Positions 4,909 to 48,109 of a DNA stretch of 49,155 nt are shown piece by piece. The notes under the pieces are model-generated. The model saw only the letters and a program-made list of their open reading frames with translations. It searched no databases and was not told the origin of the DNA. Positions within the stretch are counted from its first letter, which is position 1. Every line of letters starts with the position of its first letter. The DNA comes from a virus (Duplodnaviria > Heunggongvirae > Uroviricota > Caudoviricetes). The translations under genes and the position numbers were made by a program. The stretch lies in the IMG/VR virus record IMGVR_UViG_647533161_000005, one strand, 5' to 3'.

Positions 4909-5384
4909 AATGGCAGCCTCTTGGTTGAGTATTAATAACTCACCACCAAGGTTTTCCACGACCATAAGGGTGGTGAGGCGTACAGGGGTGGAAATACCGG
5001 TCAACCAAGAATCCGGCCAGCCTTGCAGCTGCCCTGCACGCCCCACCATAATCTGAATGTGGCTGTGCTTGACGCATAAAAAAACCGCCTGAGCGCGGTT
5101 ATGCGCTTGATTGAATTCCGGGTTTCCACGCCCGGCACCCGTTTTATGAGGTGCAGGTGCACTATAATTCCACCCGTTCTGGTTTTCAATAGCTACATTC
5201 AACATTTTCTCTTACCTTTCATCACCGAAGTGAACTTTGTTGATGCGGTGCCTGGTGCCTCCAGGTGACGTTAACCAGTTAACAATTAACGCCGGATACA
5301 GAGAATCCACCCATAACACTGTTTTTGGTTTTAACTGTTCCGCGTGCGCTTAGCCGCATTCACCGCATCACAAAATTCACTTTA

Positions 5385-5437
5385 AAAAGGGTGGCAGAGC
5401 AGTCACGGAGTAGAACTGATGCCACCAAAGACTACAC
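5385..5437 (-). ncRNA. dicF: DicF-like small RNA with intrinsic terminator
   Basis: Minus-strand sequence ...CTTTGGTGGCATCAGTTCTACTCCGTGACTGCTCTGCCACCCTTTTT closely matches my recollection of K-12 DicF (TTTGGCGGTATCAGTTTTACTCCGTGACTGCTCTGCCGCCCTTTTT), with paired changes GGCGG to GGTGG and CCGCC to CCACC that keep the terminator stem. Ends are approximate. Confidence 0.6.
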
Positions 5438-5735
5438 ATGGGTATTGTGGCGGGGCTGTCACTTAAGCGTATGGTCAACCTGACAACCCGGTGCATTTTC
5501 TGGAGCAATGGAGGAAACCCCAGCCATACTTACCGCCGCGCCATTTCGCGGATTGCCACAACCGGAAGCGCACGATCGAATTAAATTTAACGACGACCTA
5601 TACAGAGAGACTAACTTCGCCGGGCGCTTTCGTGTTATGCCCTGACTTTTCAGGGATATATCCTTTTTAGTAAACTGTCAGTGCCGGATTCTTATCCGTG
5701 TCCGGCGCACGCACTCTACCTCACCTGTGAATAAA

Positions 5736-6964: not shown

Positions 6965-7192
6965 ATGTTGAAAATTGATGCTATAGCGTTTTTTGGCAGC
7001 AAAACAAAGCTTGCCAATGCCGCAGGAGTTAGGCTGGCAAGCGTTGCTGCATGGGGGAAACTGGTTCCTGAAGGTCGCGCGATGCGTCTACAGGAGGCAT
7101 CCGGCGGGGAACTTCAGTACGACCCCAAAGTTTATGACGAATATCGTAAGGCAAAGCGGGCGGGGCGGTTGAACAATGAAAATCACCCCTGA
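6965..7192 (+). CDS. dicC: DicC-like Cro-type regulator
   Basis: 75-aa ORF MLKIDAIAFFGSKTKLANAAGVRLASVAAW... divergent from dicA; size, position and sequence fit DicC. Confidence 0.75.
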   Translation: MLKIDAIAFFGSKTKLANAAGVRLASVAAWGKLVPEGRAMRLQEASGGELQYDPKVYDEYRKAKRAGRLNNENHP

Positions 7193-7727
7193 ACAGGTTT
7201 GTGAGGCTCTGGATGCCTGGGTATGTCGACCAGGAATGACACAGGAGCAAGCGACGATATTAATCACGGAAGCATTCTGGGCTCTGAAAGAACGCCCGAA
7301 CATCGATGTTCAACGCGTCACGTTTAATGATGGCGAGGTTGATCAACGGGCGCTGGGCGTTAACCGGGTGAAGATATTCGAACGCTGGAAAGCTATCGAC
7401 ACCAGGGATAAGCGGAAAAAATTCACGGCGCTGATTCCGGCAATTATGGAGGCTATCCGAATTAGTGATTTCAGGTTGTATCGTGAGATCAGTGATGGAA
7501 AAAGCATTACGTACATGATCGCCGGATTAAACAAAGAATATGGCGATGTGGTGGAGTCCGGGCTGCTTTTTGCGGATCCAGCTGTTGTGGAACGTGAGAC
7601 TGACGAGCTTATAGAAAAAGCTATTGCTTTCAAGCATGCGTATCGTCAGCAATATCAATATTACTTTGCAGATAAACAAATGTCTGCCAGGGGTTTGTAT
7701 GAGTATCGATGCACTACGATGGGCTAA
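7176..7727 (+). CDS. YdaT-like early regulatory protein (positional analogue of cII)
   Basis: 183-aa ORF directly after the Cro-like gene. The central segment (KIFERWKAIDTRDKRKKFTALIPAIMEAI) resembles what I recall of YdaT-family proteins; this is the weakest identification in the early region. Confidence 0.5.
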   Translation: MKITPEQVCEALDAWVCRPGMTQEQATILITEAFWALKERPNIDVQRVTFNDGEVDQRALGVNRVKIFERWKAIDTRDKRKKFTALIPAIMEAIRISDFRLYREISDGKSITYMIAGLNKEYGDVVESGLLFADPAVVERETDELIEKAIAFKHAYRQQYQYYFADKQMSARGLYEYRCTTMG

Positions 7728-8739: not shown

Positions 8740-9193
8740 GCAGCAAATCCGACAGGTCTGCCGCCAGTGCATGGACCGCTGCCGGGCGGGTGAAACATGG
8801 CCTCCGGACCTGGCTGAGTTTGTGGCGCTGATTTCAGAAAGCGGGGCCAATCCATTTGGCCTGACGGTGGATGCTGTGATGGAGGAGTACCGCCGCTGGC
8901 GTGATGAGTCCTGGCGATATGACGGAAGCGACAAATATCCGTGGCCTCAGCCTGTGCTGTACCACATCTGCCTCGAAATGCGTACCAGAGGGATTGAGCG
9001 CCAGATGACGCAGGGTGAGTTAAAACGACTTGCAGAACGGCAACTGACGAAATGGGCAAAGCATGTTGGTAACGGGATGAGTGTTCCGCCAGTGCGACGA
9101 CAACTGGAAGGGGCGAAACACCCGCAAGGGCCAACGCCAATTGAACGGCTGAAACAGGAATACGAACGCCGGAAGGCAGCTGGTTTTATTTGA
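8528..9193 (+). CDS. Replication protein P family (helicase loader)
   Basis: C-terminal two thirds align with my recollection of lambda P (..FVALISESGANPFGL.., YPWPQPVLYHICLEMR.., KRLAERQLTKWAKHV..). AAGGGGG sits 6 nt upstream of the ATG at 8528; an alternative start is the ATGA overlap at 8732. Confidence 0.7.
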   Translation: MQQHQVAPHHGQFRKFGQHVSSGNVKTDLSATETVWKLWELMGEVYSNRWTQKNGAAPSKLWIAQIGAMTEQQIRQVCRQCMDRCRAGETWPPDLAEFVALISESGANPFGLTVDAVMEEYRRWRDESWRYDGSDKYPWPQPVLYHICLEMRTRGIERQMTQGELKRLAERQLTKWAKHVGNGMSVPPVRRQLEGAKHPQGPTPIERLKQEYERRKAAGFI

Positions 9194-9226: not shown

Positions 9227-9997
9227 ATGGAAACCGTATTTGACGCACTGAAAGCAATGGGAAAAGCCACATCGGTAGAACTGGCCGCGCGACTTGATAT
9301 CAGTCGTGAAGAGGTTCTCAACGAGCTGTGGGAACTCAAAAGAAATGGCGTCGTTGATAAAACTGGTCACACCTGGTTTCTGGCTGGCGAAGGTGAATCC
9401 CGGGTAACCGAAGAGCGGCCAGTAAAATCTGAAGCACAGGATATGCTGACCGGGGAGGTCGAACAAAAAGTTACCGCAGACATGATGATTGAGTTTATCG
9501 GTCAGGATGGTGCTAAAACGTGTGAGGAACTGGCGGGTAAGTTCGGCGTCAGTACTCGCAAGGTTGCCTCCACGCTGGCGGTGGTAACCGCAACGGGGCG
9601 GCTGGCACGCGTTAATCAGAACGGTAAATTTCGTTACTGCATGCCGGGCGATAATTTACCAGCAGAGCCGAAAGCCGCGCTGGTAACGGAAAGTGATGGT
9701 AAGGCCTTTCCTCAGCCAGCAGGTGCTGCGTTACCAGTCCGGGAAGCCGCAACACAGGAAGAAATTAAAACAGAAACTGTGGCGGACATTGTGCAGCCGT
9801 TGCCATCGTTTACCGAAACGCAAGCAGATGAGCTGATTTTTCCGTCCCTTCGCAGGGCAAACCTGGCGCTGCGCAGGGCGAAAAGTGATGTTCAGAAGTG
9901 GGAGCGAGTCTGCGCCGCGCTGCGGGAGCTGAACAAGCACCGGGATATTGTTCGACAGATTAGTGATTCTTCCCGCCGTGTTGTATCGGAAAAGTGA
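9227..9997 (+). CDS. Hypothetical protein with N-terminal winged-helix-like region
   Basis: ORF with GGAGG 9 nt upstream of the ATG at 9227; N-terminus [43 protein letters not shown] looks like a wHTH. Confidence 0.6.
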
Positions 9998-10012
9998 TTG
10001 CCGGAGGCGCTT

Positions 10013-10405
10013 ATGGCAAAAGTATTTACACCAGAAGAGCGGGAAGAAGTGAAGGCGCGCATTGTGGAATTCGTGCGCCTGAGCGGACGAGAAACTTTTC
10101 GACAACTGGCAGATAAAACGGGTGTCAGTAAGACCGCTATTCGTCGTTTATCTGGTGCGCTTGCGGCCAGTGGTGATGTCTGGCTCTCTGGTTGCGGGGT
10201 ATTTCCATCAGAGCAGGCGTATCGCGTATGGCGTAAGACACCGGAGAAGGCTGCTGACCCGACACTGATTCGAAAGTTACCTGACGGAGAAATACGTCGT
10301 TACAACAGACGGCAGAACATAATTTGTCGTGAGTGCCGCCAGAGCGAAGTCATGCAGCGTGTGCTGGCGTTCTATCGGGGAAACTTTCAGGAGGTGATGG
10401 AGTGA
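10013..10405 (+). CDS. Hypothetical protein, possible HTH
   Basis: ORF with GGAGG upstream of the ATG at 10013; contains an HTH-like segment (TGVSKTAIRRL). Confidence 0.55.
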   Translation: MAKVFTPEEREEVKARIVEFVRLSGRETFRQLADKTGVSKTAIRRLSGALAASGDVWLSGCGVFPSEQAYRVWRKTPEKAADPTLIRKLPDGEIRRYNRRQNIICRECRQSEVMQRVLAFYRGNFQEVME

Positions 10406-10698
10406 GGGTGAGAGTTTATATTGCCGGTCCAATGACGGGATATGAAAATTTCAACCGTGAGGCGTTTCACAAGGCGGAAGAGGAACTGAAACGGGAAGGG
10501 CATACCGTCTTAAACCCGGCAGTACTTCCGGACGGGCTGACACAGCCGCACTACATGGATATTTGCATGGCAATGATTCGTTGTGTGGATGCGATTTACA
10601 TGCTGAATGGCTGGCAGCGGTCAGCGGGCGCTAAGGCAGAGCTGGCACTGGCGGAGAAACTGGGGCATGCGGTGATTTATCAGGAGGTGGCTCAATGA
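10402..10698 (+). CDS. DUF4406-like protein (nucleoside 2-deoxyribosyltransferase-like fold)
   Basis: Motif VYIAGPMTGYENFNREAFHKAEEELKREGHTVLNPA is typical of this family. Probable GTG start 8 nt after AGGAGG, overlapping the upstream stop. Confidence 0.6.
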   Translation: MRVRVYIAGPMTGYENFNREAFHKAEEELKREGHTVLNPAVLPDGLTQPHYMDICMAMIRCVDAIYMLNGWQRSAGAKAELALAEKLGHAVIYQEVAQ

Positions 10699-11156
10699 GA
10701 GAGGTTAACTATGAGGCGCTTCGTGAGGCAGCACAAAACTATCAGTCGACGCTGGCGTGGTATCAGGCTATCCCGGACAGCCCAAATGCTGAACGGGATT
10801 GTGATGCGGCTCTTGCTGCGTTTAAGCGTCACATCCGTCATCGGGAAGCGGATATTATCGCTGATTTGCTGGATGGACTGGAAGAAGCAAAATCACAACT
10901 CAACGAGCAGCGTGAGTATTACGAAGGCGTTATCTCTGATGGGAGTAAGCGTATTGCTGAACTGGAAGCGCGGGAAGTTCAATTACCGACTCGCTACGAC
11001 CTTCGATATGGACATCCGATAAATGCAGATGAGCGACATGTCATGATACCTAAAGAAAATGGCAGTTGGCTTTACCTGATTGACCTAGAACACGCATTAC
11101 GCGTCGCTGGCATTCGCATCAAAGGAGAGGAGCATGGAAATAAAACCAGAGGATGA
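10695..11156 (+). CDS. Hypothetical protein
   Basis: 153-aa ORF with ATGA overlap to the upstream gene; no recognisable family. Confidence 0.55.
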   Translation: MREVNYEALREAAQNYQSTLAWYQAIPDSPNAERDCDAALAAFKRHIRHREADIIADLLDGLEEAKSQLNEQREYYEGVISDGSKRIAELEAREVQLPTRYDLRYGHPINADERHVMIPKENGSWLYLIDLEHALRVAGIRIKGEEHGNKTRG

Positions 11157-11490
11157 GTTAAGCAATATCGTTTTATTTCCGGTAAAAGAGGATGACCCTC
11201 GTAATCAGGTTAATTTTCTTTATGAGTCATCGGAAAGACCATATTGTCATCACGCCTCTGTTCGGGTTGACGAAAAAGAGCGTCAGGTCCGCTGTAAAAT
11301 CTGCGGTGCAGTTGTGGAGCCGTTTGACTGGATGCTCTCTGTGGCGAAAAGAGAAACCAGACTGGCAGATGATGTAAGGCTATTGCGCCAGGAGGAACAG
11401 GAAAGGCGGAAAAATATAGAAAAGTTAATTCAGATTGAGCGTAACGCGAAAGCGCGGATATGCAGGGCGACAAAATCCAGAACTGAATAA
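11134..11490 (+). CDS. Hypothetical protein with putative zinc ribbon
   Basis: 118-aa ORF with CHH...CKICG metal-binding-like motif; overlaps the upstream gene end. Confidence 0.5.
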   Translation: MEIKPEDELSNIVLFPVKEDDPRNQVNFLYESSERPYCHHASVRVDEKERQVRCKICGAVVEPFDWMLSVAKRETRLADDVRLLRQEEQERRKNIEKLIQIERNAKARICRATKSRTE

Positions 11491-11585
11491 TTAAATTTAG
11501 CACTGTTAAAAATTTTATCCTTAACCGGAGGGATTTCTGCACCCTCAGAACATCAGGAGGCCGCCCGAAAGGGCGGTAATGAAAA

Positions 11586-11993
11586 ATGACTGAATTAACA
11601 AAAGAGCAATTAATCGAAGAAGCCAAATTAAAAATAGCGATTGCGAAATGCCACACGAATTCAGGGATGGCACGGGTAGAGGGTGAGTTATTCAAAATTG
11701 CACTGGCATCGCTAGAAGCGGAACCGATAGCGTGGAAATGCGGCGAAAACATAATCCTGTTTAATCCTGACACAGTTGAAGCATACGCAAAACGTGCGGA
11801 GATATCACCTAAACCACTATTCGCAGCTCCACCTGTGCCGGTTGTGTCTGAAGAACTGGTTAAAGCCGTGCGCTTCTATGAAAAGGTTAAGCGTGAAAAT
11901 CCGCCAGTCGAAACCGGAGCATGGAAAGACGCTGTTGACTGGGTGCTCAAAGAGGCCTGCCAGGTTGTAAACACTGGCATCAAAGGAGACTGA
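11586..11993 (+). CDS. Hypothetical protein
   Basis: 135-aa ORF; shares the motif AAPPVPVVSEE with the 328-aa protein encoded at 12357..13343. Confidence 0.55.
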   Translation: MTELTKEQLIEEAKLKIAIAKCHTNSGMARVEGELFKIALASLEAEPIAWKCGENIILFNPDTVEAYAKRAEISPKPLFAAPPVPVVSEELVKAVRFYEKVKRENPPVETGAWKDAVDWVLKEACQVVNTGIKGD

Positions 11994-11994
11994 T

Positions 11995-12360
11995 ATGGCA
12001 CTGACGAAAAAACAACGTGCAGAATTGCGCATGAAGTTTGGCGGTCGCTGTGCTTATTGCGGCTGTGAACTTGGCGAAAAGTGGCATGCAGACCATGTAA
12101 AACCGGTCATTCGTTTTAATGGAAATATGCTTCACCAGGAACGTGACGATATATCCAACATGGTTCCGGCATGCCACCCATGCAATCTGCACAAGCATTG
12201 CAGTAGCCTGGAAGACTATCGGCGAATTATCAGTGATGGTCGTCGTGAATTCCTTGCGTCCGGGAAAGGCAAAGCGCTGGTTCGTATGGGATTGGTTGAA
12301 ATGAAATCTGACCCGGTTGTGTTCTGGTTTGAAAAATATCAAGAAGGGGCTACAGCATGA
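11995..12360 (+). CDS. HNH endonuclease
   Basis: CAYCGCE...HADHVKP...CHPCNLHK matches the HNH motif arrangement (CxxC, His-Asn-His core, second CxxC). Confidence 0.8.
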   Translation: MALTKKQRAELRMKFGGRCAYCGCELGEKWHADHVKPVIRFNGNMLHQERDDISNMVPACHPCNLHKHCSSLEDYRRIISDGRREFLASGKGKALVRMGLVEMKSDPVVFWFEKYQEGATA

Positions 12361-13343
12361 CCACTATTACCAATAAGAAACAGTATCCCAGCGAGCAATA
12401 TCTTAATGAGCTTATCACCAACATAGAGTTTGCTGCAAGGGCACCAGTTGAAGTCGTGAGCGCAATGGCAGCAGAGCTACAGAAGCGGCGCGAAGCTGAT
12501 AGCGCAGAACCAGTTGCTTATATTTTCAAACATCCGGCCGGGAAATTATTCTGGGCTTTAACGGATGAAAGCAATAAAGAGCAAGCGGACGTTATTCCTG
12601 TTTATGCCGCCCCTCCAGTGCCAGTAGTATCTGAAGAAAAACCAATGCCTAACCCTCTTAAAATGTACGCGGTCGATGATGTTGCCGCTATTGCAGAGGT
12701 GAGAGGCTGGAATGCCTACCGCGCCGCCATGCTTCAGAGTCAGGGGGAAGGCAACCCTCATGTAACCCCGGCTCGCCTGCCTGGTGGTTTCACCATTGAG
12801 GATGCGAAGGTGTTACATGAAGACCTTGTACGTAGCCACATAAGCCAGGCTTTAAGTGGCGAAAAGATGAAAAAGAAAGATCGCGATGCTGATTTGCGCT
12901 GGATTCATGGCGTAATAGTTCAGGCCGCGTGGTTTGTAAAGGCATCACTGGAGCAGAATGCACTATCGGGCAACTCTCCGGTAATTCCTGGTGAGGTGTT
13001 GTCCGCAATCCGGGAGGTTGCCAGGATTCGCGCCGATTTCGATGATTTTGACGGTGACAGGCGAGGTATCGGTGATTGTCTGGATGAGGCCGAGCAAGAG
13101 CTTATCGTTACCATTAACAAATATGCCAGTCAGTTGGCAGTAGAGCCGGTAGTACCTGATGACGTTCTGGAACAGACAGTAGCGTCGCCAGCGCTAGGTA
13201 ACCAGGTTAGCGAATTAACAATGTGGGTTAAACGACTGGTCAGTCAACTGAAAAAAGCTCAGCCGGACTGCAAATTACCGGAGAAGGCGATGGATTACCT
13301 GAAACGAAATGGACTGATAAGCGTGGAGGATGTTTTACGATGA
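12357..13343 (+). CDS. Hypothetical protein
   Basis: 328-aa ORF with ATGA overlap to the HNH gene; no recognisable family. Confidence 0.55.
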   Translation: MTTITNKKQYPSEQYLNELITNIEFAARAPVEVVSAMAAELQKRREADSAEPVAYIFKHPAGKLFWALTDESNKEQADVIPVYAAPPVPVVSEEKPMPNPLKMYAVDDVAAIAEVRGWNAYRAAMLQSQGEGNPHVTPARLPGGFTIEDAKVLHEDLVRSHISQALSGEKMKKKDRDADLRWIHGVIVQAAWFVKASLEQNALSGNSPVIPGEVLSAIREVARIRADFDDFDGDRRGIGDCLDEAEQELIVTINKYASQLAVEPVVPDDVLEQTVASPALGNQVSELTMWVKRLVSQLKKAQPDCKLPEKAMDYLKRNGLISVEDVLR

Positions 13344-13463: not shown

Positions 13464-13643
13464 ATGAAAAACGCATTGCAGTTTTTGTTTGTTGCGTTCT
13501 GGTTGTTCGCATCATGTATGCCCATCATCTTCACAGCAAGGTATATGGAAAAAATTGATGTTTTGATATTAATGTTTGGACATATAAATGCCCTTTTTTT
13601 AGGGGTGTTCATGGCGGTCATGTGCATTGAATACTGGCGGTAA
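13464..13643 (+). CDS. Small hydrophobic membrane protein
   Basis: MKNALQFLFVAFWLFASCMPIIF...GVFMAVMCIEYWR, two hydrophobic segments, in an AT-rich stretch just upstream of hok. Confidence 0.4.
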   Translation: MKNALQFLFVAFWLFASCMPIIFTARYMEKIDVLILMFGHINALFLGVFMAVMCIEYWR

Positions 13644-13901
13644 ATACAGCGAACGCCATTGGTTTAGTTGGATATTTACTGTGCCGGACAAAAACGGTTT
13701 GCGGGGAAATCTTAGTTAAGTAGAATAACTGCGGGTGCTTGAGGCTATCTGTCTCAGGCATGAACACCAAAAGGCAGATAGAGAAAAGCCCCAGTTAACA
13801 TTACGCGTCCTGCAAGACGCTTAACATTAATCTGAGGCCATATCTATGCGACACATAGAGATTAGCCTCTTACGGACCGAAAGGTCAAGGAGAAGCAGGC
13901 T

Positions 13902-14057: not shown

Positions 14058-14125
14058 GAGACCAGGCGAGGGAGAAATCCCTCGCCACCTCTGATGTGGC
14101 AGGCATCCTCAACGCACCCGCACTT

Positions 14126-14150
14126 AACCCGCTTCGGCGGGTTTTTGTTT
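14126..14150 (+). terminator. Rho-independent terminator downstream of hok
   Basis: Hairpin aacccgc-ttcg-gcgggtt followed by a T-run. Confidence 0.6.
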
Positions 14151-14411
14151 TATTTTCAACGCATTTGAAGTTCTGGACGGTGCCGGAATAGAATCAAAAA
14201 TACTTAAGTAGCGCGCAGGGATAAGAGGGATGGTCCCTTAAAGGGGAGAGCTAATTATCCGGAAGGATTCTGATGATGAACATCGAAGAACTGCGTAAAA
14301 TTTTTTGTGAAGATGGCCTCTATGCTGTGTGCGTTGAAAATGGAAATATTGTTAGCCATTACCGCATTGTGTGTTTGCAAAAAATGGGGCTGCGTTAATT
14401 AATTTTGTGGA

Positions 14412-14593
14412 NNNNNNNNNNNNNNNNNNNNNNNNNNNNNNNNNNNNNNNNNNNNNNNNNNNNNNNNNNNNNNNNNNNNNNNNNNNNNNNNNNNNNNNNN
14501 NNNNNNNNNNNNNNNNNNNNNNNNNNNNNNNNNNNNNNNNNNNNNNNNNNNNNNNNNNNNNNNNNNNNNNNNNNNNNNNNNNNNNNNNNNNNN
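14412..14593. other. Assembly gap (182 N) with duplicated flanks
   Basis: N-run; 14071..14411 is repeated at 14594..about 14937 with homopolymer-length differences. Confidence 0.9.
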
Positions 14594-14796
14594 GGAGAAA
14601 TCCCTCGCCACCTCTGATGTGGCAGGCATCCTCAACGCACCCGCACTTAACCCGCTTCGGCGGGTTTTTGTTTTTATTTTCAACGCATTTGAAGTTCTGG
14701 ACGGTGCCGGAATAGAATCAAAAATACTTAAGTAGCGCGCAGGGATAAGAGGGATGGTCCCTTAAAGGGGAGAGCTAATTATCCGGAAGGATTCTG

Positions 14797-15048
14797 ATGA
14801 TGAACATCGAAGAACTGCGTAAAATTTTTTGTGAAGATGGCCTCTATGCTGTGTGCGTTGAAAATGGAAATATTGTTAGCCATTACCGCATTGTGTGTTT
14901 GCAAAAAAATGGGGCTGCGTTAATTAATTTTGTGGATGCCCGAGTGACGGACGGATTTATCTTGCACGACGGTGAGTTTGTCACTTCATTACAGGCATTG
15001 AAAGAGATCGGAATAAAAGCTGGCTTTTCTGCTTTTTCAGAAGAATAA
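14797..15048 (+). CDS. Small hypothetical protein (position corresponds to rem of the K-12 Qin prophage)
   Basis: 83-aa ORF; a truncated, frameshifted copy sits in the left flank of the gap. Size and position between hok and the DUF968 gene suggest a Rem homologue, but I cannot verify the sequence. Confidence 0.5.
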   Translation: MMNIEELRKIFCEDGLYAVCVENGNIVSHYRIVCLQKNGAALINFVDARVTDGFILHDGEFVTSLQALKEIGIKAGFSAFSEE

Positions 15049-15394: not shown

Positions 15395-16453
15395 GTGCGG
15401 GTATTACTTCGACCTGTTCTGGTACCGGAACTTGGGCTGGTGGTGCTAAAACCGGGCCGTGAATCCATGCCGGTATTCCACAATACCCGGGTACTGGTGG
15501 AGCCGGAACCGAAAAGCATGCGTAATCTGTCGTCCGGGGTCGTTCCTGCCGTTCGCCAGCCGCTGGCGGAGGATAAATCATTACTGCCATTTTTCAGCGA
15601 CGAACGAGTGATTCGTGCTGCTGGTGGCGCTGGCGCATTGTCTGACTGGTTACTGCGCCATGTTAAATCCTGCCAGTGGCCACACGGCGATTATCACCAC
15701 AGTGAAACCGTCATTCACCGTTATGGTACCGGCGCAATGGTGTTGTGCTGGCACTGCGACAACCAGCTGCGCGACCAGACCTCCGAATCACTCGGGCAAC
15801 TTGCTCACCAAAACCTGTCTGCATGGATGATTGACGTCATACGCCATGCAATGAATGGCTCGCAGGAACGGGAATTATCGCTGGCTGAATTATCCTGGTG
15901 GGCGGTCCGCAATCAGGTGGCGGACGCGCTACCGGAAGCGGTATTACGTCGTTCGCTGGGGTTGCGTGCGGAAAAAATCCGCTCAATGTACCGTGAAAGC
16001 GACATCGTACCGGGAGAGCAGACCGCCACCAGCATACTGAAACAGCGCACAAAAAATCTTGCGCCGCTGCCTCACGCCCACCAGCAACAGAACCCACCAC
16101 AGGAAAAGACGGTGGTCAGCATTGCCGTTGATCCGGAATCTCCGGCTCAGTATCTCCAGCGCCAGAAACCACAACGGGAAGAGATGCCTGTATACACGCG
16201 CTGGGTAAAAACGCAGAAATGCATGACGTGTGGCAATCAGGCAGATGATCCGCATCACATCATTGGTCATGGACTGGGAGGGATGGGAACAAAGGCTGAC
16301 GATTTGTTTGTTATTCCGCTGTGTCGTAAATGCCATAACGAACTACACGCCGGGGTAAAAGATTTTGAAGAAAAACACGGTAGTCAGTTGTTGTTGCTGA
16401 TTCGTTTTTTAATGCACGCGAGAAATTCGGGTGTTCTGAAGTGGAAAGCATAA
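15395..16453 (+). CDS. DUF968-family protein (YdfU-like)
   Basis: C-terminal motif CMTCGNQADDPHHIIGHGLGGMGTKADDLFVIPLCRKCHNELH is typical of YdfU-like prophage proteins; GTG start after GGAGG. Confidence 0.7.
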   Translation: MRVLLRPVLVPELGLVVLKPGRESMPVFHNTRVLVEPEPKSMRNLSSGVVPAVRQPLAEDKSLLPFFSDERVIRAAGGAGALSDWLLRHVKSCQWPHGDYHHSETVIHRYGTGAMVLCWHCDNQLRDQTSESLGQLAHQNLSAWMIDVIRHAMNGSQERELSLAELSWWAVRNQVADALPEAVLRRSLGLRAEKIRSMYRESDIVPGEQTATSILKQRTKNLAPLPHAHQQQNPPQEKTVVSIAVDPESPAQYLQRQKPQREEMPVYTRWVKTQKCMTCGNQADDPHHIIGHGLGGMGTKADDLFVIPLCRKCHNELHAGVKDFEEKHGSQLLLLIRFLMHARNSGVLKWKA

Positions 16454-17927: not shown

Positions 17928-18228
17928 TGTGGTAAATGGGCGGCTGGTGGGTGTGGTGGTTGTTGCTTTCCCGTTGCTGAAAAAGAAAACGCCAGACTGT
18001 TAGCCGGGTATCAGTTAGCGGGAGAAATTTTTAAATACTTCACAATTCAGGCGGTTGACTGTTGTCTGGTTTGCGGGGAGTTTGTTAAAAGAAACTGGCA
18101 TGGTGAATCCCCCTGTGCGGAGGGGCAATCAGCGAGTAGGTATATGGGATAATCGCGGATTCAGGTGCTGGTACTGAATTCACCGGGAGGCACCCGGCAC
18201 CATGCAATGGCACATAGCGCCACTCTCC

Positions 18229-18255
18229 AGCCCCTCTCCGGAGGGGCTGTTTATA
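18229..18255. terminator. Hairpin terminator downstream of the minus-strand gene 18284..18619
   Basis: Hairpin agcccctc-tccg-gaggggct. Confidence 0.5.
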
Positions 18256-18283
18256 TTGATTTTGTCAGATGTGAGTAAACTCC

Positions 18284-47525: not shown

Positions 47526-48109
47526 TGGCATTCAGAATGAGTGAACAAGCACGGACCATAAAAATTTATAATCTGCTGGCCGGAACTAATGAATTTATTG
47601 GTGAAGGTGACGCATATATTCCGCCTCATACAGGTCTGCCAGCAAACAGTACCGATATTGCACCACCAGATATTCCTGCTGGCTTTGTGGCTGTTTTCAA
47701 CAGTGATGAGGCATCGTGGCATCTCGTTGAAGACCATCGGGGGAAAACGGTTTATGACGTAGCGTCAGGGGACGAGTTATTTATTTCTGAACTCGGTCCG
47801 TTACCGGAAAATGTTACCTGGTTATCGCCGGAAGGGGAGTTTCAGAAGTGGAACGGCACAGCCTGGGTGAAGGATACGGAAGCAGAAAAACTGTTCCGGA
47901 TCCGGGAGGCGGAAGAAACAAAAAACAACCTGATGCAGGTAGCCAGTGAGCATATTGCGCCGCTTCAGGATGCTGCAGATCTGGAAATTGCAACGGAGGA
48001 AGAAACCTCATTGCTGGAAGCCTGGAAAAAGTATCGGGTGTTGCTGAACCGTGTTGATACATCAACTGCACCTGATATTGAGTGGCCTACGAACCCTGTC
48101 AGGGAGTAA
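47525..48109 (+). CDS. tfa: Tail fiber assembly protein (Tfa)
   Basis: [59 protein letters not shown]... matches lambda Tfa; TAATG overlap with stf. Confidence 0.9.
47940..48109 (+). repeat. Direct repeat copy 1 (tfa 3' end)
   Basis: About 170 bp that recur at 48985..49155 with roughly 85-90 percent identity by eye. Confidence 0.7.

Follow-up and report, generated by a model that had tools for sequence, protein, structure and literature searches.

Eight tightly packed early genes of a Rac/Qin-type lambdoid prophage probably form a variable array of singly shuffled cassettes

The window analysed here is a 49,155-nt stretch of Caudoviricetes DNA (IMG/VR record IMGVR_UViG_647533161_000005), and our subject is a set of eight genes at positions 9227–13343 of it, between replication gene P and sok/hok. 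The list of open reading frames (ORFs) and a reading of the DNA itself confirm that eight small + strand ORFs occupy this place with the sizes given in the original prediction, which was made from the sequence alone; we number them g1 to g8 from 5′ to 3′ (Table 1). On the 5′ side they are flanked by genes for a DnaT-domain O analogue and a lambda-P-like protein, the latter gene ending at 9193, and on the 3′ side by sok/hokD, rem and genes for a DUF968 protein, RusA and Q. Many Escherichia coli chromosomes in RefSeq contain annotated prophage DNA that matches the 4.2-kb stretch at 100% identity. In strain Z1002, the prophage with the identical copy adjoins potC and has the gene order int-xis-exo-dicB-...-cI-like-cro-ydaT-O-P-[block]-hokD-rem-DUF968-rusA-Q-lysis-terminase. 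We identify the source element as an E. coli prophage of the lambdoid Rac/Qin type.

The eight genes are tightly packed and partly translationally coupled, in accordance with the original prediction. Specifically, four stop/start overlaps can be read from the sequence, of 4 nt between g2 and g3 (GTGA), 4 nt between g3 and g4 (ATGA), 23 nt between g4 and g5, and 4 nt between g7 and g8 (ATGA), while the other pairs are parted by 15 nt (g1/g2), 95 nt (g5/g6) and 1 nt (g6/g7). GGAG-type ribosome-binding sites lie 6–10 nt 5′ of every start codon except that of g6. A consensus scan of the + strand detected no terminator-like site within 9227–13343, the first good one being at 14126, after hok, and the frequency of promoter-like matches within the block does not exceed that in shuffled sequence. 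Accordingly, no internal promoter, terminator or known RNA was found in the block, and the Rfam matches, including that to sok, all lie outside it. When compared with non-identical homologues, the ratio of nonsynonymous to synonymous substitution rates (dN/dS) of g1–g8 ranges from 0.06 to 0.49, indicating purifying selection on all eight, which are therefore genuine coding genes.

Table 1. Features of the window, with the number of complete E. coli genomes (of 5426) that hold full-length copies
Feature	Position	Strand	Size or description	Genomes
g1	9227–9997	+	256 aa	1570
g2	10013–10405	+	130 aa	
g3	10402–10698	+	98 aa, GTG start	1202
g4	10695–11156	+	153 aa	
g5	11134–11490	+	118 aa	1679
g5/g6 spacer	11491–11585	+	95 nt, belongs to the g5 cassette	
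g6	11586–11993	+	135 aa	135 (full-length allele); parts in 1088
g7	11995–12360	+	121 aa	385 (complete)
g8	12357–13343	+	328 aa	128 (full-length allele); parts in 1933, including 666 plasmid places
Whole block				128
Small membrane ORF	13464–13643	+	59 aa (72 aa from GTG 13425); two hydrophobic segments; GGGGG ribosome-binding site	
C4 antisense RNA, IsrK, DicF	4966–5440	-	Rfam above gathering score; leftward early region	
YdaT-toxin-family protein	7176–7727	+	After cro	
DUF968 protein	15395–16453	+	Putative HNHc_6 nuclease domain; after rem, adjoins RusA	
STnc100	18069–18258	+	Rfam above gathering score; downstream of Q	
IS009	47868–48066	+	Rfam above gathering score; near the right end of the window	

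The original prediction had treated the eight genes as one block, and as a functional or evolutionary unit this block did not survive the co-occurrence check. The whole set is present in 128 of the 5426 genomes, exactly the count of the rarest gene, the chimeric g8 allele, and genomes with any match to the block have a median of 2 and a maximum of 12 matching places. The genes do not co-occur beyond clonal copies, as would be required of a co-functional module. In addition, the eight proteins and the anchor genes were mapped onto 227 IMG/VR loci fetched via g1, g5 or g7, a sample in which cassette frequencies are biased because it is seeded with these three genes and holds close relatives only. 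In these loci the order g1 > g2 > (g3 g4) > g5 > g6 > g7 > g8 > hok is always colinear, and which of the genes are present varies combinatorially. Of the 38 unique g1-seeded intervals extending as far as hok, 38 contain g2, 13 g3, 12 g4, 18 g5, 5 g6, 1 g7 and 5 g8, and a single interval contains all eight. The only linked pairs are g1–g2, with g2 (two alleles, of ~60% and ~100% identity) after g1 in 38/38 intervals, and g3–g4 (24/28).

The variation is confined between two conserved anchors, gene P followed by the g1–g2 pair on the left and sok/hok, rem, DUF968, RusA and Q on the right. The interval from g2 to hok occurs as 82 distinct sequences of 1.1–6.7 kb, which encode 82 protein clusters in 47 arrangements; alternative cassettes at the site include QueH, a weak Mom-like protein, DUF7167 and many DUF551 chimeras. 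In a BLASTN comparison of the window with the IMG/VR loci, break points accumulate at gene boundaries (9200, 10380–10400, 11100, 11520–11580, 11980, 12360, 13680–13720 and 14140), with a single internal break point at 11820–11840, in the linker of g6. Each gene is shown to be a self-contained cassette joined to the operon by a short conserved junction, which consists of the last upstream codons, doubling as Shine-Dalgarno sequence, the stop/start overlap and sometimes the first five downstream codons, MTT(I/F)T. Judging from the break-point positions, these junctions, together with the recurring protein linkers EAEPVA, AAPPVPVVSEE and GNSPV(T/I)P, would serve as recombination joints, so that cassettes and modules would be gained, lost and swapped singly among co-resident prophages, of which an E. 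coli cell usually houses several.

All eight proteins have a PHROG match, and five have a Pfam match above cut-off. The domains guessed beforehand, namely winged helix-turn-helix (wHTH), helix-turn-helix (HTH), DUF4406, zinc ribbon and HNH, all hold in Pfam, PHROG and AF2 analyses. Of the two kinds of search that had been proposed, profile searches placed each gene in a catalogued family, and structure-based ones gave no assignment for g5 or g8. The statement that none of the genes has an assignable role is right for most of them as regards an experimentally known role and is too strong for g1 (YdaW), g2 (Ren), g3 (nucleoside deoxyribosyltransferase (NDT) superfamily) and g4 (Ead/Ea22-like). 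PADLOC and NCBIfam searches of the block returned generic HTH and HNH matches and no membership of a defence system or named family; with PADLOC, the seven genes other than g7 had no meaningful match. In the literature, we found no functional studies of DUF1627, DUF977, DUF4406 or DUF551 except for the report of YdaW as a blocker of RcaT and the work on Ea22.

The modular character of the region is most pronounced in g4, g6 and g8. g4 matches PF13935 (Ead_Ea22) with 46.7 bits (cut-off 27) as well as phrog_250, and comprises an N-terminal segment, a coiled coil and a C-terminal domain of its own. The last ~15 codons of g4 contain the ribosome-binding site of g5 and are part of the g5 cassette, with exchange points piling up at ~11100. 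g6 and g8 have no Pfam match and are covered piecewise by PHROG families: g6 by phrog_660 (positions 3–143 of 193) and phrog_250 (positions 319–354), and g8 by phrog_6847 (residues 1–97), phrog_14306 (residues 202–294) and the C terminus of phrog_660 (residues 281–328). Specifically, g6 consists of an N-terminal module with the sequence IALASLEAEP(I/V)A, the linker AAPPVPVVSEE, which is the exchange point at 11820–11840, and a C-terminal module in common with phrog_250, while g8 aligns as five modules joined by the three recurring linkers. At least 7972 protein clusters at 90% identity carry parts of g8, most of them ending in DUF551, which g8 lacks. g6 and g8 are chimeras drawn from a hyper-mosaic Ea22/DUF551 module pool. 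We also considered a phrog_660-type gene split by insertion of the HNH gene, with g6 as its N-terminal and g8 as its C-terminal half; this candidate was rejected, as only divergent relatives and no clean empty site were found, and the pieces shared by g6 and g8 are better explained by general module shuffling, given the number of clusters with parts of g8 and the modular alignment. g8 modules also occur on plasmids of E. coli (666 places), which are presumably phage-plasmids; the pool therefore extends beyond chromosomal prophages.

In RefSeq, g8 of the identical Z1002 sequence is annotated only from an internal ATG onwards (205 aa), so that 368 nt carry no annotation (window 12357–12728). We prefer the 328-aa reading because the ATGA coupling is conserved and homologues share the N-terminal modules. 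The AF2 model of g8 (predicted local distance difference test score, pLDDT, 45.7) is too poor for a fold search.

Mosaicism of the ea22 gene has been published (PMC10834534), and published work describes Ea22 as pro-lysogenic (PMC7093339) and the Ea22 proteins of lambda and of vB_EcoS_P27 as tetramers in solution (PMC7093339, PMC10834534). Like the published variants, the mosaic proteins g4, g6 and g8 have an N terminus, a coiled coil and swappable C-terminal domains. They differ in location, as they follow the replication genes in the rightward pR operon, whereas the Ea22/Ead genes of lambda and Stx phages lie in the exo–xis (pL) region; in Stx phage ArgO145, the homologous DNA sits in the leftward region. 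They also differ in that a sequence search of the PDB detected no lambda-type Ea22 C-terminal domain in them, and g4 gave no meaningful E-value against the solved C-terminal domain of lambda Ea22 or against any other chain in the PDB. By analogy with Ea22, the three proteins may be oligomeric scaffolds with swappable end domains and would adjust the choice between lysis and lysogeny or the physiology of the host.

g5 matches phrog_1621 (E = 3e-55), has a sub-threshold match to the TFIIB zinc ribbon and belongs to no Pfam family; its own family is limited to Enterobacterales. The protein is composed of a disordered N terminus, a C-x-H...C-x2-C zinc ribbon and a single long C-terminal helix, which is probably a coiled coil. 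C38, H40, C54 and C57 are near-invariant in the family, and the helix carries the conserved sequence LRxEExxRRxNIEKLIQIERNAKARI. The AF2 model (pLDDT 73.5) contains strands at residues 43–54 and a 55-residue helix at residues 63–117; a Foldseek search of this model against the PDB reached a TFIIB-type ribbon at E = 0.2 only and provided no functional lead. The dN/dS of g5 is 0.13. The protein would act as a zinc-ribbon coiled-coil protein together with a partner. The spacer between g5 and g6 contains a GC hairpin, GCCGCCC-GAAA-GGGCGG (~11560–11577, within 11555–11588), located between an AGGAGG and the ATG of g6. The predicted fold of the spacer RNA has an energy of −28.4 kcal/mol (z = −2.3), and homology end points within the spacer pile up at 11520 and 11580. 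The hairpin might bring the Shine-Dalgarno sequence near the g6 ATG or modulate translation of g6.

g3 is a DUF4406 protein (PF14359, E = 6e-38, 129.7 bits against a cut-off of 22; phrog_355) under a dN/dS of 0.13, and its family numbers 12,253 representatives of 50%-identity clusters at E ≤ 1e-3. DUF4406 is a sister family of PF05014 (Nuc_deoxyrib_tr), which g3 itself matches at 14.4 bits, under the cut-off of 28.8. Residues G9, G13, F22, P39, P43, S74, G76, E80 and A84 are invariant in the family, and the motif S-x-G-x3-E is kept. Single-sequence searches of the PDB with g3, g4 and g8 yielded nothing meaningful, and NDT-type enzymes were reached by the g3 profile alone: a profile of 30 homologues matches the NDT 2a0k (E = 2.7e-4, positions 1–95) and also 4jen (the CMP N-glycosidase MilB) and 5vto, and reaches BcmB, named as a CMP N-glycosidase. 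The invariant residues S74, G76 and E80 align with the motifs CGTAFE and PGTHIE, with E80 in the G-T-x-x-E column, the Glu of which is the catalytic residue (nucleophile) of NDT-type enzymes, whose flavodoxin-like fold carries it in a G-T/S-x-x-E motif. g3 is thus a predicted minimal member of the nucleoside deoxyribosyltransferase/N-glycosidase superfamily, most likely a nucleotide or nucleoside N-glycosidase. In comparison with NDT, MilB, BcmB and DNPH1-type enzymes, the g3 profile aligns with 2a0k and 4jen over its whole length, but the protein has only 98 residues against 140–190 in NDT/MilB-type enzymes and therefore lacks several substrate-binding elements. No second Pfam domain was found in ten DUF4406 fusion proteins.

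g1 is a DUF1627 protein (PF07789, E = 9e-99, 328 bits against a cut-off of 28.1; phrog_630, E = 3e-135; dN/dS 0.36) with 60% identity over 154 aa to YdaW of the K-12 prophage Rac (E = 8e-64), and is the orthologue of that protein. It comprises two winged-helix domains (~1–60 and ~85–140), a Pro/acidic linker and a C-terminal helical region, and its second wHTH weakly resembles g2 (E = 6e-4). The Rac operon ydaS-ydaT-ydaU-ydaV-ydaW has the same layout as the region studied here, with a cro-like gene, a ydaT-like gene, replication genes and a YdaW-type gene. The two differ in that K-12 YdaW is cut off after ~residue 151, Rac lacking everything 3′ of that point, and in the replication genes, which are DnaT-like/P-like here and DUF1376/DnaC-like in Rac. 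K-12 YdaW was also considered as a DUF977 homologue of g2 and rejected, as it matches g1 instead.

g2 is a DUF977 protein (PF06163, E = 2e-41) and matches phrog_142, a family described as 'Ren-like exclusion protein' (E = 1e-43), as does lambda Ren (1.6e-41). A direct BLASTP comparison of g2 with lambda Ren gives 29% identity over 90 aa (E = 4e-9), and the two share a C-terminal ECRQS..M.RVLA.Y motif, which in g2 follows a wHTH; g2 is a homologue of lambda Ren. Like g2, lambda ren lies 3′ of P in the pR operon. An insertion makes the g2 protein 34 residues longer than Ren, and g1 separates its gene from P. With g2 as the Ren homologue, the lambda gene order P–ren is conserved, with g1 inserted in between. 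The Pfam DUF977 model misses lambda Ren, which has no Pfam match, despite the BLASTP result and the common PHROG family, and DUF977 could be annotated as Ren-like or linked to lambda Ren.

As found by Toothman and Herskowitz (1980), ren reportedly shields lambda from Rex exclusion. Furthermore, Ren has been described as co-transcribed with O and P, as likely to take part in replication and as binding Rex proteins in two-hybrid assays (bioRxiv 10.1101/2021.04.19.439022), and overexpression of ydaW blocked RcaT, the toxin of retron-Sen2, in a screen of prophage genes (bioRxiv 10.1101/2020.06.22.160242). By analogy, the literature suggests counter-defence for Ren and YdaW only, in an indirect manner, with no such hint for the whole set. 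g1 and g2 would be winged-helix proteins tied to the replication module; by the same analogy, they are likely to influence responses that are linked to replication or belong to abortive infection (Rex- or retron-type).

g7 matches PF01844 (31.7 bits, cut-off 21.4) and phrog_2118 (E = 1e-56), and its translation retains C19-x2-C22, H31-A-D-H34, N55, C60-x2-C63 and H66, the features of a predicted free-standing HNH nuclease with an intact catalytic motif. Homology to g7 starts at ~11980 (73 high-scoring segment pairs) and ends at ~12360 (69 pairs), as in a sharply bounded cassette. At least five different genes are found 5′ of it, and their last codons (..KGD/KGE/KES, AAGGAGAnTGA) supply the Shine-Dalgarno sequence of g7. 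At least eight different genes are found 3′ of it; these have only ATGAC[CG]ACT[AT]TTACC, encoding MTT(I/F)T, in common and always begin in an ATGA overlap. The joints of the HNH cassette are accordingly a conserved 13 nt upstream and 17 nt downstream, in at least five by eight contexts. In related loci, some 55-aa ORFs begin with an MTTIT-type module that is fused, via a DPV/EPV microhomology, to the final 15 HNH residues, and 324 complete E. coli genomes contain only partial g7. Both the fusion ORFs and the partial copies resemble scars left by deletion of the HNH cassette. With PADLOC, g7 has a generic HNH match only (PtuB, E = 2.8e-8), and no PtuA-like ATPase is encoded nearby.

These properties are reminiscent of phage free-standing HNH homing endonucleases, which are likewise small, with a zinc-binding CxxC pair, and reside in an intergenic cassette with many flanking contexts, except that g7 covers only positions 161–275 of the 301-position phrog_2118 and is devoid of a DNA-binding extension. 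g7 would be a selfish or recombination-promoting HNH nuclease. In a stronger form of this idea, g7 would be active as a homing-type endonuclease, cutting HNH-less junctions just 5′ of MTT(I/F)T-type genes and thereby driving both its own spread and the unusually high turnover of neighbouring cassettes. The sharp cassette bounds and the fixed ATGA register, before at least eight genes sharing ~17 nt and after at least five genes, would fit such an enzyme, as would the lowest dN/dS among the eight genes (0.06), which marks the strongest purifying selection, the intact catalytic motif and the commonness of the scars. However, a search for uninterrupted g6–g8 alleles found no clean empty site matching the g6/g8 junction, the conserved junctions also border cassettes free of a nuclease, and homologous recombination of the ordinary kind at the shared joints accounts for the pattern. 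Active homing appears doubtful. A joint claim, in which g1–g2 form a dedicated countermeasure against replication-sensing abortive infection of the Rex or retron type and g7 cuts the MTT(I/F)T junction, driving the shuffling of Ea22/DUF551 modules, seems to us similarly questionable.

The region is best explained as a variable accessory-gene array in the delayed-early rightward operon of a Rac/Qin-type lambdoid prophage, in which cassettes are shuffled singly, a reading to which we assign a probability of roughly 0.7. The gene families are already catalogued and the arrangement is ordinary, one clonal outcome, as the eight-gene combination would be under such shuffling. The products would act separately rather than as a complex, and their separate predicted activities fit the independent inheritance of the genes. 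Several points weigh against this reading. The IMG/VR loci were fetched via g1, g5 and g7 and include close relatives only (≥95% identity), which biases cassette frequencies; selection against disrupted genes would likewise concentrate break points at gene boundaries; and tight coupling without internal terminators would also fit a co-functional operon. In addition, structure-based assignment failed for g5 and g8, and the YdaW–RcaT result comes from a preprint and concerns an overexpressed, truncated K-12 allele.

The eight genes might instead be housekeeping accessories of replication and recombination, equivalent to lambda ren and nin, with g1 and g2 acting in initiation, g7 as a NinG/Rap-like junction nuclease and g3 in nucleotide salvage. 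The constant position of g1–g2 after the replication genes, the homology of g2 to Ren with its likely part in replication, and the NDT-like character of g3 would suit this explanation, and g7 has a weak match to NinG (PF05766, E = 1.4e-3). This match, however, is limited to the HNH-like core (profile positions 93–147) and remains below the Pfam cut-off (18.9 against 25.4 bits), and the prophage already encodes RusA and the DUF968/HNHc_6 protein downstream. Moreover, g3–g8 are dispensable, since each is absent from most related prophages. No other match to NinB–NinI was found in the block. The original prediction rightly placed the genes at the position equivalent to ren/nin in the early rightward operon, and the expectation that the lambda nin genes are replaced here was right in this respect, save that the slot of ren is kept by g2. 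We consider the housekeeping explanation unlikely. That the set is one co-functional early module for host takeover, anti-restriction or anti-defence, with products working together, is very improbable: its tight packing with four overlaps and no internal terminator, its early-operon position, the counter-defence hints for Ren and YdaW and the occurrence of a Mom-like protein and QueH among the alternative cassettes are set against a full set found in 128 of the 5426 genomes (as many as carry one rare g8 allele) compared with 385–1679 for single genes, 47 arrangements in related phages with linkage only of g1–g2 and g3–g4, and PADLOC matches that are generic HNH only.

Beyond the eight genes, the array of independently shuffled cassettes has a further member, the small membrane ORF between g8 and sok, which is the last variable cassette before sok/hok and a ninth ORF of the region. 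Of the 82 unique intervals, 19 encode a protein of the same cluster; the ORF has no match in Pfam or PHROG, and RefSeq leaves it unannotated in Z1002. Elsewhere in the window, a run of 182 N (14412–14593) lies between duplicates of ~340 bp (14071–14411 and 14594–14934) that differ by one homopolymer A. This looks like a scaffold gap with overlapping ends within rem, and the truncated first copy of rem is for this reason an assembly artefact. With g7 and the DUF968/HNHc_6 gene, there are at least two HNH-type genes in the early right operon.

The early operon of a prophage is not made a functional module by being tightly packed and translationally coupled; here these traits reflect the splicing of independent cassettes into one transcript. 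The site is a natural catalogue of dispensable early genes, with its 82 protein clusters. Hot spots of this kind usually hold counter-defence and lysogeny-tuning genes, and single cassettes are therefore reasonable candidates for screens, the best being the widespread g5, the predicted DUF4406 enzyme g3 and the Ren/YdaW pair.

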